From Mucisphaera calidilacus (lineage in GTDB: Bacteria; Planctomycetota; Phycisphaerae; Phycisphaerales; Phycisphaeraceae), in NCBI RefSeq assembly GCF_007748075.1, contig NZ_CP036280.1:3000001-3032000 (forward strand): DNA of 32,000 bases, in the 5' to 3' direction. Shown in pieces: positions 1,854 through 22,102 of the stretch. The notes beneath the pieces were generated by a model. That model worked only from the letters and a program-made list of their open reading frames with translations, was not told the DNA's origin and ran no database searches. Each line of letters begins with the position of its first letter. Positions within the stretch are counted from its first letter, which is position 1. The translations under genes and the position numbers were made by a program.

Positions 1854-2120
1854 ATGAAGAAGTCGAGATTTACCGAGGAGCAGATCGCGTTCGCACTCCG
1901 CCAGGCCGAGGGTGGTACGCCGGTGAAGGAGGTCTGCCGGAAGCTGGGTGTGCATGAGCAGACCTTCTACCGGTGGAAGAAGCAGTTCGCGGGTATGGGC
2001 GTGGCGGAGTTGCGCAAGCTCAAGCAGCTAGAGGAAGAGAACTCGAAGCTCAAGCGACTGGTGGCCGACCTGAGCCTGGATCGTCAGATCCTGCAGGACG
2101 CCCTCAAGGGAAAGCTCTAA
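1854..2120 (+). CDS. IS3-family transposase OrfA (HTH)
   Basis: MKKSRFTEEQIAFALRQAEGGTPVKEVCRKLGVHEQTFYRWKKQFAGMG...leucine-zipper-like LKQLEEENSKLKRLVADLSLD. Typical IS3/IS407-group OrfA. The track ORF starts at 1833, but the MKKSRF start is conserved in the second copy. Confidence 0.85.
   Translation: MKKSRFTEEQIAFALRQAEGGTPVKEVCRKLGVHEQTFYRWKKQFAGMGVAELRKLKQLEEENSKLKRLVADLSLDRQILQDALKGKL
2108..2114 (+). promoter_or_regulatory. Candidate -1 programmed ribosomal frameshift heptamer G_GGA_AAG (orfA->orfB)
   Basis: GGGAAAG sits in X_XXY_YYZ phase with the orfA frame (aaG GGA AAG), 2 codons before the orfA stop. A -1 slip reads GKALKPDHRRAMANR..., which is the orfB frame. Confidence 0.55.
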
Positions 2121-2673
2121 AGCCTGATCATCGCCGTGCGATGGCCAATCGAACGCAGCTCAAGTACGGCGTCAGCGAGCGTCGTGCGTGCAAGGTCCTG
2201 GGCCATGCAAGGGCGACGCAGCGTTACCAGAGCGTGGCGGATGATCAGGCAGCCCTTCGAAGCAGGATCAAGCAGATCGCTGGGGTCCATGTGACCTGGG
2301 GTTATCTTCGGATCTGGGTGAAGCTCCGACGCGAAGGCCATCATGTGAACAAGAAGCGTGTCTACCGTCTATACCGTGAAGAAGGCTTGGCGATGAGCCG
2401 GCGGCATAAGCCGCGTCGCCATCGCAGCAGTATGCACCGTCTCGAGCAGACCACCGCAACATGCGCGAACCAGAGTTGGTCGATGGACTTCATGGCCGAT
2501 GAGCTGTTCGACGGCCGTCGGTTCCGGCTGTTGACGTTAGTGGATGACTTTACGCGTGAGAGTCTGGCGATCGAGATCGGCCAGCGTCTGGGTGGTGTCG
2601 AGGTCGCATCGGTTCTAAGTGGTGTCGCCAGGGACCGAGGGGCTCTTCCAGAGAAGATCCGAGTCGACAATGG
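2108..2673 (+). pseudogene. IS3-family transposase OrfB, N-terminal part (interrupted at VDNG by the nested IS)
   Basis: Frame of track ORF 1973-2683: YGVSERRACKVLGHARATQRY...WSMDFMADELFDGRRFRLLTLVDDFTRESLAIEIG...IRVDNG (rve integrase core, first D). Homology stops at 2673. Confidence 0.8.
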
Positions 2674-2756
2674 AAAACTATGAAAGCCGGGTACACCGGG
2701 GGATGATCGGACACGTGTCCGACGTGTGCCCCGACCCTTTATCAGGAGACCCGGCG

Positions 2757-3802
2757 ATGCAACTACTGGCGATCGACCTCGGCAAATTCAAGAGTGTGGC
2801 GTGCCTCTATCGTGGTGATGATGACACGGAGTTCCGGACGATCGAGACCCGGCCACAGGTGATCCACGATCTGCTGACGGAGTGTGAGCCGGAGCGATTG
2901 GTGGTGGAGGTGGGGACAGTGACGGGCTGGGTGCACGACCTGGCGGCGGCTCTGGGGATCGAGGTGCAGGTCGCCAACCCGAATACCGAGGGCTGGCGTT
3001 GGCGTCGGGTCAAGCGTAAGACGGACCGAGACGACGCATTGAAGCTCGCTCGGCTATCGGCGGCAGGTCAACTGCCAACGGTGTGGATGCCCAAGCCGCG
3101 GGTTCGGCAGTGGCGTTCGCTCATCCACTACCGGCACGCATTGGTGAGCCGGCGGACGGCGATCCGCAACAACATCCGATCGGTGCTGGACGCTCAGGGA
3201 CTTGGTCTGGCGATGGGCAAGAAGGCGTGGACCGAGGAGGGCATGCTTCGTGTGGCGGAGATCGCCAAGCCGATTGTGTCGTGCTCGGCGGATGAGTTGT
3301 GGCGCGGTCAGCTCGATGTCGAGGCGACCTTGCTGGTACAGCTGCAATCGCAGCTCCAAGCGGTTGAAGACAGGCTTGATGCGCTCGCGGCGACCGACGC
3401 CCGCACGGCTCGGCTTCGCACGATCCCGGGCGTGGGCCCACGTCTGAGCGAGGCGGTGGTAGCTTGGGTGGACGACCCGGAGCGATTCCGCAATGCCAGG
3501 GCCGTGGGCTCGTACGTCGGCCTGGTTCCCCGGCGGCGGCAGTCGGGGACCTACGACCGTTCGGGGCGTGTGACCAAGCAGGGCCCGAGTCTCTTGCGGA
3601 AGCTACTGGTGGAGGTGGCTTGGATCATGCGGCAGCACAATCCGCACGCGGAGGCGTTGTTCAGGAAGCTGAGCAAGGGGAGCGGAGCCGGCACAAGCAG
3701 GCGATGGTGGCCTTGGCTCGGCGGGTGCTGACCTGGTGCTGGGCGATCTTGCGGGATGGCAGCACGTGGGACCCCGAACGGATCGGGTTGGAAGCGGCCT
3801 AG
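2757..3802 (+). pseudogene. IS110-family DEDD transposase, apparent frameshift near 3675-3695
   Basis: MQLLAIDLGK (D), VVEVGT (E), KRKTDRDDALKLARL (DD), then TIPGVGPRLSEAVVAWVDDPERFRNARAVGSYVGLVPRRRQSGTYDRSGRVTKQGPSLLRKLLVE (Transposase_20). The conserved C-terminus HKQAMVALARRVLTWCWAILRDG lies in another frame (track ORF 3464-3802). The frames switch around the GGGG run at 3677-3680. Confidence 0.8.
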
Positions 3803-4061
3803 AGCGGTGTTGATCTTAGACCGATGAGGAGCCTTGGTTGATGCGAAGATTGCTACGACCGCGGCGGCAGAGCTCGAGAACTCTGGTGAGCCTTAGCTCG
3901 ACAACGGAAATGAGCGCCGCCGTGTCGCAAAGTTGAATGGGCCCACCCCCAAACGGTGGTCAACCCGGATAGTGACCTAAACCGATCTCGCTGCATCAAG
4001 GCCAACAGACTTAACGGAGAAAAAGCATGAGCTGAATGTTGACAACCCCGGCTTCATAGTG
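3803..4061 (+). ncRNA. Candidate IS110-family bridge/seek RNA region (3' non-coding end)
   Basis: 259-nt non-coding tail. It contains tcgacaacggaaa (3898-3910), matching the left insertion junction tcgacaatggaaa (2664-2676) at 12/13. It also contains ctcgctgca (3987-3995), the exact reverse complement of the right junction tgcagcgag (4060-4068). RNA boundaries and promoter were not determined. Confidence 0.35.
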
Positions 4062-4346
4062 CAGCGAGTTCACGAGCAAGCGGCTGGACCAGTGGGCCTA
4101 CGAGCAAGGTGTCCGTCTGGACTTCAGTCGGCCAGGAAAACCCACGGATAACGGGCTGATCGAAGCCTTCAACGGTCGTCTGCGTCAAGAGTGCTTGAAC
4201 GAGAGTTGGTTCCTGAGCCTGGAGGATGCCCGGGAGAAGCTCGAAGCCTGGCGAACTGATTACAATCTCCATCGACCTCATAGCGCGTTGGGCAACCTGG
4301 CCCCCAGCGAGTTCGCTTCAACCGGCCAGGCATGCCTGGCCGGTTG
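4062..4346 (+). pseudogene. IS3-family transposase OrfB, C-terminal part
   Basis: Translates to SEFTSKRLDQWAYEQGVRLDFSRPGKPTDNGLIEAFNGRLRQECLNESWF...YNLHRPHSALGNLAPSEFASTGQACLAG* (rve second D and E, IS3 C-terminal signature). In frame with 2108-2673 once the nested IS is removed. Confidence 0.8.
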
Positions 4347-4483
4347 AAGCCTCGATCTTCTCGCTTCGCTTGGATCAGAAACTGGTTGCGGGTCAATTAT
4401 GCCAGAAGTAAGTTTTACACCTGGCACCAAACCCGGGGGGAGGTCAATGCAGGGTGGGCTATTGATATACTAATGGGACTGGA

Positions 4484-4813: not shown

Positions 4814-4976
4814 AGACCTCCGGTGCCGGCGTGCCGCCCTCGGCCTGACGTAATGCGAACGCGATCTGTTCTTCCGTAAATCTCGACTTCTTCATCCAAA
4901 TGGCCTTTACAGACAAAGGCCGAATTGTCGCCGAATACGAGCATCAACAATGGATCAGGATCCGAGGAGAGGCGCA
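4814..4976 (-). mobile_element. Solo left-end remnant of a second IS3-family copy (IRL plus first ~23 codons of orfA)
   Basis: The reverse complement reads TGCGCCTCTCCTCGGATCCTGATCC...ATGAAGAAGTCGAGATTTACGGAAGAACAGATCGCGTTCGCA (MKKSRFTEEQIAFALRQAEGGTP). It is colinear with 1773-1925, and similarity is lost after ~4814. Confidence 0.75.
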
Positions 4977-21713: not shown

Positions 21714-21977
21714 GCGTAGTTGAGACAGACATTCTTACACCTACCTGCAGTAAGACAGAAATAGTGCAATATGTAATAAGTGGGTCTGGCCTGACCTTCT
21801 GGCTCATGAGTTCGTGGTTTTTGGATCCCTGCCGCAGATCGCTATCGATCCCGTGACCAACGGCGTCGAAGAGGCTCAGGCCTTCGGGCTGACCTCCTTC
21901 ACCGGCGTGTCATCTTCAGCCTGGCGTTGACCTTCCCCCCTCAAGCGAATCCATTTCCTAGACTTAGTTTTTAGGTA

Positions 21978-22102
21978 TACACCTCTCCCCATCTTGATAC
22001 CAGTCTCGATGCTAACCTCGGCCATCAATCGGCCGGGTGAACCCGGCCGATTGATTCAGCGAACTCCTCGGGGGCCAGGTTGCCCAAGGCGCTGTGGGGA
22101 CG
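21978..22102 (-). mobile_element. Right-end remnant of another IS3-family element (last ~25 codons of orfB plus terminal repeat)
   Basis: The minus strand reads RPHSALGNLAPEEFAESIGRVHPAD*, the IS3 OrfB C-terminal signature. The plus strand from 21978, TACACCTCTCCCCATCTTGATAC, matches the IR consensus of the 1773 copy (TGCGCCTCTCCCCGAATCCTGATCC). Upstream homology is lost at ~22102. Confidence 0.55.

Follow-up and report, generated by a model that had tools for sequence, protein, structure and literature searches.

We found that the 259-nt non-coding tail of an IS1111-type insertion sequence, itself nested within an IS3 element of the Mucisphaera calidilacus genome, very probably (we put the probability at roughly 0.9) encodes a bispecific guide RNA of the kind known as bridge RNA or seekRNA. 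Positions are given in the window, meaning the whole stretch of 32,000 nucleotides that was analyzed; the tail spans 3803-4061, and the predicted core of the RNA spans 3836-3997. A preliminary description of the window had proposed such an RNA on the basis of three short matches between the tail and the junctions of the element, and all three are present in the sequence. tcgacaacggaaa (3898-3910) agrees with the left junction tcgacaatgg|aaa (2664-2676) at 12 of 13 positions in direct orientation, ctcgctgca (3987-3995) is perfectly antisense to tg|cagcgag (4060-4068) across the right junction, and atagtga occurs at 3969-3975. The first two had been judged unlikely to arise by chance, and they are indeed rare: among 300 dinucleotide shuffles of the tail, none contained a 13-nt match to the left junction with at most one mismatch, and two contained the 9-nt antisense match to the right junction. 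Our comparative data bear out the proposal as a whole, in that the tail holds a conserved, structured RNA whose loops would recognize the two target strands as well as the element's two ends.

The element is a 1388-bp insert (2674-4061) that interrupts IS3 orfB, and the length of its tail is that given in the preliminary description. Its non-coding ends are unequal, with 259 nt lying 3' of the transposase gene versus 83 nt (2674-2756) lying 5' of it. The transposase matches Pfam families PF01548 (E 3e-12) and PF02371 (E 3e-24), it is similar to PDB transposases of IS621 (8wt6, E 2e-13 over the C-terminal domain) and ISCro4, and its residues D7, E51, D90, and D93 are invariant in seven relatives. 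The genome also holds a second copy of the element, 98% identical to the first over 1296 nt, with an intact 348-aa open reading frame in which GLVPRRRQSG corresponds to the motif GL-P----SG; the protein of this copy scores 217.5 bits against the NCBIfam model NF033542, "IS110 family RNA-guided transposase" (cut-off 140). Published marks of the IS1111 group are a GL-P----S(T)G motif, a transposase of 330 to 350 aa, subterminal inverted repeats of 7 to 17 bp that carry short terminal extensions, and a longer non-coding region on the 3' side (PMC11187229, PMC11208160). Assignment of our element to the IS1111 group of the IS110 family, as had been suggested earlier, is thus supported by its DEDD transposase, its subterminal inverted repeats, and its long 3' non-coding end.

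When the insert is excised in silico, gtc gac aat gg is joined to c agc gag ttc, and the rve orfB frame is regained together with the residues R-V-D-N-G-S-E-F. The frame is likewise regained upon removal of the insert in five relatives (L003 and L031-L034), and in six of the eight readable cases overall. Insertion is specific for both site and orientation and produces no target duplication, the two genome copies and the eight clade relatives whose junction can be read all occupying the same codons and pointing the same way. In the genome, an IS1111-type element disrupts each of the two full-length copies of the host IS3, and a genome search for an empty copy, which was meant to fix the crossover, returned just these two occupied copies and fragments. 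Therefore, the exact crossover (core) can be placed only to within the single base, G, that target and donor share at the junction (GG vs TG). Other traces of IS3 lie within the window: an inverted left-end fragment of the same IS3 type is found on the minus strand at 4814-4959, just downstream of the complete element (85.6% over 146 nt), and further remnants occur near 21882-22102.

Table 1. Positions in the window of the nested element, its host, and the predicted parts of the guide RNA
Feature	Position	Strand	Remarks
IS3 orfA	1854-2120		Pfam HTH_Tnp_1
Pfam matches in IS3 orfB, 5' portion	1973-2683		Pfam HTH_21 and rve
Left target half, tcgacaatgg	2664-2673	+	V-D-N-G codons of IS3 orfB, inside Pfam rve 1973-2683
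Nested IS1111-type (IS110-family) insertion sequence	2674-4061	+	1388 bp, without target duplication
Left subterminal inverted repeat, CTATGAAAGCCGGG	2678-2691	+	4-nt extension AAAA (2674-2677) before the repeat
Transposase gene (DEDD_Tnp_IS110 and Transposase_20)	2757-3802	+	Broken by a 1-nt deletion at 3679/3680
Bridge RNA/seekRNA gene core (predicted)	3836-3997	+	R1 covariance-model match
P0 closing stem, 5' strand	3843-3852	+	Pairs with 3983-3991; helices 1-2, changes on both sides in all 8 pairs; P(paired) 0.81, partner 0.94
P1 and P2, 5' strands	3856-3868 (P1), 3872-3876 (P2)	+	Target-loop arm; partners 3916-3927 (P1) and 3911-3915 (P2); RNAalifold
T guide (right-target), AGAACUCUGGU	3877-3887	+	5' side of target-binding loop
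Distal hairpin, UGAG(C)...(G)CUCG	3887-3900	+	Closes target-binding loop; helix 7, 94% paired, 4/4 pairs changed on both sides
B guide (left-target), GACAACGGAAA	3900-3910	+	3' side of target-binding loop
D5 multiloop segment, CAAAGUUGAA	3928-3937	+	AGUU (3931-3934) complements left end AACT (2676-2679)
P3 and hairpin	3938-3967	+	P3, UGGG 3938-3941/CCCG 3964-3967; hairpin, 3943-3947/3955-3959
D3 multiloop segment, GAUAGUGACCUAAAC	3968-3982	+	AUAGUG (3969-3974) equals right end atagtg (4056-4061); ACC follows
P0 closing stem, 3' strand (3983-3991), and 4 nt	3983-3995	+	Includes ctcgctgca; not a guide
TTGACA, -35-like hexamer	4039-4044	+	17 nt from right terminus
Right subterminal inverted repeat, CCCGGCTTCATAG	4047-4059	+	2-nt extension TG to 4061
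Right target half, cagcgagttca	4062-4072	+	S-E-F codons of IS3 orfB, inside Pfam rve_3/rve 4063-4347
Pfam matches in IS3 orfB, 3' portion	4063-4347		Pfam rve_3 and rve

We searched for relatives of the transposase in three collections. Reference genomes yielded nine loci, mostly from Planctomycetota MAGs, 400 genomes of the phylum yielded a few distant loci, and metagenomes yielded 80 loci at 50 to 79% identity. From nine close relatives we derived an RNAalifold consensus structure and built a covariance model, R1, upon it. The consensus has four parts, namely a closing stem (P0), a P1-P2 arm with an internal loop and a small hairpin, a P3 arm with a hairpin, and the unpaired strands of a multiloop. 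R1 matches the window with 168.1 bits (E 4e-40), and only two matches occur in the 3.49-Mb genome, one for each copy of the element. It also matches 64 related loci, in every case on the strand of the transposase and 3' of the transposase gene.

Conservation and covariation of this structure are plain in a 65-row alignment. Standard pairs fill 95.2% of its cells, versus 23 to 41% when the partners are slid by one to three columns, and although the former percentage is inflated, the alignment having been fitted to R1 itself, an artifact is made unlikely by the control with slid partners and by compensatory changes, which affect both sides in 33 of the 37 pairs. Helices 3 to 6, which make up P1 and P2, are 90 to 99% paired and have compensatory changes; helices 8 and 9, the P3 arm and its hairpin, are 98 to 99% paired, with changes on both sides in all five pairs of the hairpin. 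Ensemble pairing probabilities range from 0.24 to 0.42 for the guide segments and from 0.81 to 0.94 for the P0 strands.

The two strands of the internal loop in the P1-P2 arm are the segments that we call the T and B guides. The T guide has ACCAGAGTTCT as its reverse complement, and its GAACUC (3878-3883) pairs with gagttc (4066-4071), while the B guide matches the left junction gacaatgg|aaa (2666-2676) at 10 of 11 positions in the sense of the top strand. Left and right subterminal repeats were both located in 58 related loci, so that both flanks are known, and we compared guides with flanks across 32 non-redundant loci. The mean longest Watson-Crick run of the T guide was 6.50 with its own right flank versus 2.69 with other flanks, and that of the B guide was 6.34 with its own left flank versus 3.93 with others (0 of 5000 permutations in each case). 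The register of the T guide varies by 0 to 2 nt among clades; the test was run with offsets of 0 to 3, and a fixed register underestimates the matches. Guides thus co-vary with flanks, as single loci illustrate: L005 has the B guide GAAUAAGAA and the flank gaataag|aa, L054 has AAAAUCAAAC and gaaatcaaac, and in L041 the T guide matches 9 nt of its own right flank. L011 lies at a related N-N-G site (aataacgg), and its B guide (GGUAACGG) has changed to suit. The segment 3898-3910, which the preliminary description had taken as a guide, is largely one, given that 3901-3910 forms the 3' side of the target-binding loop, but its first three bases (3898-3900) belong to the stem of the distal hairpin. 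The actual guide for the top strand is AGAACUCUGGU (3877-3887), which shares an internal loop with the bottom-strand guide and forms the 5' side of that loop.

Together, the guides of the window copy spell GACAACGG|ACCAGAGTTCT, or VDNG|PEF, while the site actually occupied reads …AATGG|CAGCGAGTTC, or VDNG|SEF, and pairs with just 6 of the 11 bases of the T guide compared with 10 of 11 for the B guide. Given this partial pairing, and that the guides spell PEF rather than SEF, we consider the window site a suboptimal, near-cognate target. The earlier suggestion that the target loop is programmed for VDNG|SEF in IS3 orfB therefore holds for the D-N-G-x-E-F codons, but not for the serine. Since the loop is aimed at these codons of IS3-family orfB, the insertion of one insertion sequence into another is explained. 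Many guide/target mismatches in the relatives are G·T or U·G wobbles, and most members of the clade have G or U in the guide where it faces third-codon positions; synonymous variants might be tolerated in this way, but plain complementarity to an ancestral site would account for it equally well. The genome contains two further rve-type D-N-G-P-E-F sites (GATAAYGGGCCGGARTTT), at G000:C1:1794890 (+) and 1120858 (-). Both are unoccupied, and by manual inspection the T guide would pair with the latter better than with the window site if wobble is allowed.

The flanking gene could be read in 8 of the 10 loci of the clade (the window, L002, L003, L004, and L031-L034), and all eight of these interrupt rve-type transposase genes at GAC AAY GG|N CCN GAG TTY, the DNGxEF codons. 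Pfam rve precedes the insert and rve_3 follows it in each of the eight, and the interrupted genes belong to at least two transposase subfamilies. L009 has the same right-flank sequence as the target of the clade. Other clades of the same transposase family (L052, L055, L058, L069, L072, L073, L080, L083, and L092; L084-L091; L104) home to different repeats, for example a palindromic …gtgcagcGG|…|TGgcgggttatgc unit and a cgatccacgaAG|…|AAatcacacgaa unit, and L104 is inserted directly next to the right end of another element.

Besides the target, the RNA appears to read the ends of the element itself, through the multiloop strands that flank P3. AGUU in segment D5 is, on present evidence, the right-donor guide, and the corresponding position changes with the variants of the left end in relatives (GACT, (A)CACT, ACCCA, ATCCA, and AGC). 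AUAGUG, contained in the D3 portion GAUAGUGACC (3968-3977), is the candidate left-donor guide: in 43 of 44 loci, AUAG is followed by the same dinucleotide as the CATAG of the right end (TG in 17, GA in 12, AA in 11, and TC in 3). The segment atagtga, which had been equated with the inferred junction of the circular element, is accordingly part of a genuine donor guide within the donor-binding loop. Donor-binding bases also lie in a multiloop, not an internal loop, in many IS1111 orthologues (PMC11208160). We considered whether the three bases after AUAGUG (ACC) might serve as a "handshake"-like guide spanning the product, and rejected this because their tracking of the right flank is weak (1.39 vs 1.11 of 3 bases). 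An IS621-like core of 2 nt common to target and donor was likewise sought and was not found in this clade (GG vs TG); a GA core may fit the L005-like clade.

How should the antisense match to the right junction be understood? The preliminary description had placed the two target guides in separate parts of the RNA, with 3898-3910 reading the left side directly and 3987-3995 reading the right side in antisense. Both matches are real and, as noted above, rare in shuffles, and the antisense match extends further, with 3984-3995 complementary to 4060-4071 at 11 of 12 positions (a 12-nt match with one mismatch occurred in 1 of 300 shuffles). Nonetheless, we consider this arrangement very unlikely. 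Positions 3983-3991 are the 3' strand of the covarying P0 stem, with a pairing probability of 0.94 for the strand and 0.73 for the segment 3987-3995, and part of the match (CUCG vs cgag) follows from the conserved target. Folding had been proposed as a check on whether the matching segments lie in loops; the B-guide and donor segments are unpaired, but ctcgctgca falls within a base-paired stem, an outcome that the preliminary description had itself named as counting against a guide. A comparison with other copies, also proposed, divides the segments in the same way, because the loop guides change with the flanks while CUCGCUG is the same in L003, L004, L009, L011, L032, L033, and the second genome copy in spite of differing right flanks. 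When the P0 3' strand was itself evaluated as a target guide, a faint excess for its own right flanks over others emerged (4.43 vs 4.01, 17 of 2000 permutations), but the two values are nearly equal and the T guide gives a far stronger signal in the same test (6.63 vs 3.54, 0 of 2000); we therefore rejected it. The motif ACCCGC is common to the T guide, the P0 3' strand, and the target in the clade of L055, L058, L072, and L083, and the resemblance of the P0 strand to the T guide and target may stem from an ancient duplication or from alternative base pairing.

It might also be argued that the tail is a mere protein-binding transposon end with a 3' untranslated region, that it encodes no guide RNA at all, and that its similarity to the junctions stems from chance or from captured target bases. 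Indeed, an Rfam 15 scan of 2500-4300 at E values up to 10 returned no family match, just a spurious snoRNA hit, and the single-sequence fold of the 259-nt tail was not more stable than those of its shuffles (z -0.75), so that thermodynamics alone is uninformative for the tail. The compensatory changes in 33 of 37 pairs, however, indicate selection on an RNA (or single-strand) structure, and the loops change with the flanks at unrelated targets. Captured end DNA cannot account for these changes, with the guides lying 150 to 185 nt inside the element, and the transposase family is experimentally known to be RNA-guided (PMC11187229, PMC11208160). We thus give this explanation hardly any credence. 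A different objection concerns the history of the window copy, which might have arrived by homologous recombination or gene conversion from another IS3::IS1111 locus rather than by RNA-guided insertion, leaving its poor T-guide match uninformative about targeting. The second genome copy (L002; G000:C1:316760-321055, junction 2806/2807) lies at the same D-N-G codons of another, mosaic IS3 copy, and its right flank, accgagttc, lacks 1 nt that would be needed to restore the host frame. The host IS3 is in fact a mosaic in both copies, with 95% identity over the left 885 nt and divergence beside the insert, while the nested copies are strongly divergent over their first ~120 nt and 98% identical over the remainder, a pattern that points to past recombination; the 6 of 11 paired T-guide bases at the window site fit such a history as well. 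On the other hand, the immediate right flanks of the two copies differ (cagcgagttc vs accgagttc), so the junction was not simply copied, and the insertion point is identical to that in the eight clade loci with a readable junction. We regard arrival by recombination as improbable, and it would in any case bear on the past of one copy, not on the identity of the RNA.

The reading that we favor remains that of a guide RNA encoded by the tail. The copy in the window is, to judge from its sequence, decaying. Its transposase gene is frameshifted: aligned with the second copy (aagggtgagcg), the window reads aaggg-gagcg, a T having been lost between 3679 and 3680. Because of this frameshift, mobility of the window copy would require transposase from the second copy, which looks intact. 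Position 3979, in the D3 loop, lies within a UGA motif that almost every row of the alignment retains; it is A in the window copy and G in the second copy and close relatives. This G-to-A change may be another sign of decay.

These observations suggest a mechanism, which we frame by homology with IS621 and ISEc11. The closing stem P0 would open into the multiloop, and the P1-P2 arm would bear the target-binding internal loop. There, on the right of the insertion point, the top strand would be bound by the T guide; on the left, the bottom strand would be bound by the B guide, which runs 3 nt into the left end of the element. The multiloop strands around P3 would bind the donor, AGUU with the top strand of the left end and AUAGUG with the bottom strand of the right end. 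We infer that the RNA is transcribed and bound by the transposase, and that the DEDD/serine recombinase and its RNA would then synapse the circularized element with GACAAYGG|NCCNGAGTTY (the D-N-G-x-E-F codons), where catalysis would recombine the element circle with the target without target duplication.

No sigma-70-type promoter was found in the linear element. In 57 of 58 relatives a TTGAC lies 16 to 19 nt short of the right terminus (exactly 17 nt in 41 of them), and upon circularization the TTGACA of the window copy would face the left-end sequence AAAACT (2674-2679), probably creating a promoter at the junction from which the transposase gene and the RNA downstream of it could be transcribed. 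Junction promoters have been documented for ISEc11 (PMC11187229).

Because the site lies inside the catalytic-motif coding sequence of an rve transposase, insertion inactivates the host element. This raises the potential, tentative and in our view rather doubtful, that the clade is a dedicated RNA-guided hyperparasite of rve/IS3-type insertion sequences, and that each of its insertions knocks out the host. Under such a scenario, the catalytic D-N-G-x-E-F codons would be kept by protein-level selection across transposase subfamilies, G or U opposite third-codon positions would let one guide accept synonymous variants, and the T-guide-like P0 strand might contribute an additional level of recognition or serve as a structural switch. 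Our search of the literature, which was not exhaustive, returned nothing specific on IS110 or IS1111 elements aimed at IS3 transposase genes.

The mechanism itself was published in 2024, and our element is a well-supported new example of it rather than a new mechanism. It adds a natural IS1111-type bridge RNA, found in Planctomycetota and metagenomes and resolved in good detail, with all four guide segments assigned from comparative data, and a covariance model where Rfam has none. Its natural target is a protein-coding motif of other transposons, which explains the nesting of one insertion sequence in another and provides an instance in which a mobile element homes to members of a different family and inactivates them; that a whole clade homes to the catalytic-motif codons of another transposon family is a point of moderate interest. 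About 60 relatives with different guides and flanks could yield pairing rules for IS1111-type systems, which have received less study than IS621: how far wobble is tolerated, in which register the guides pair, and how long the terminal extensions are. In annotation, the 3' tail deserves the label of an RNA gene rather than that of a spacer.

The closest known systems are the IS1111 seekRNAs of ISEc11, ISPa11, ISKpn4, and ISPst6 (Siddiquee et al. 2024, PMC11187229). They share with our element the location of the RNA, in the long non-coding region 3' of the transposase gene, and the order of the guides, with the top-strand match (T) followed by the bottom-strand match (B). Subterminal inverted repeats with short extensions, the lack of a target duplication, a transposase of about 340 aa with GL-P----S(T)G, and a -35 hexamer at the right end fit for a junction promoter are common to both as well. 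The targets differ, being codons of rve-type transposases here versus attC, REP, or short linear targets there, and the left extension is 4 to 5 nt here versus the 7 bp assigned in ISEc11. Our transposase, whose relatives are planctomycete and metagenomic, is probably only distantly related to theirs; those systems were studied experimentally, and ours is described here from sequence.

The bridge RNA of IS621 and the IS110 group (Durrant et al. 2024, PMC11208160; excision study, PMC13626964) has the same four guide roles, with left guides reading the bottom strand and right guides the top strand of both target and donor, and it likewise has two binding modules per RNA and a homologous recombinase. 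However, the IS621 RNA lies at the left end of its element and ours at the right end, the order of guides in the target loop is reversed, and the donor bases of IS621 lie in a simple internal loop versus the multiloop seen here. Unlike IS621, our element has long subterminal repeats; the 2-nt core that target and donor have in common in IS621 has no clear equivalent at our junction (GG vs TG), and we identified no counterpart of the IS621 handshake dinucleotides. Site-specific insertion, in one orientation, into a conserved sequence of another mobile element is also characteristic of IS4321 and IS5075, which enter the inverted repeats of the Tn21 family, and of the IS1111-attC group. Our element likewise inserts site specifically and in a single orientation into another mobile element, but its site lies within the coding sequence of a catalytic D-N-G-x-E-F stretch whose protein-level conservation extends over at least two rve subfamilies.
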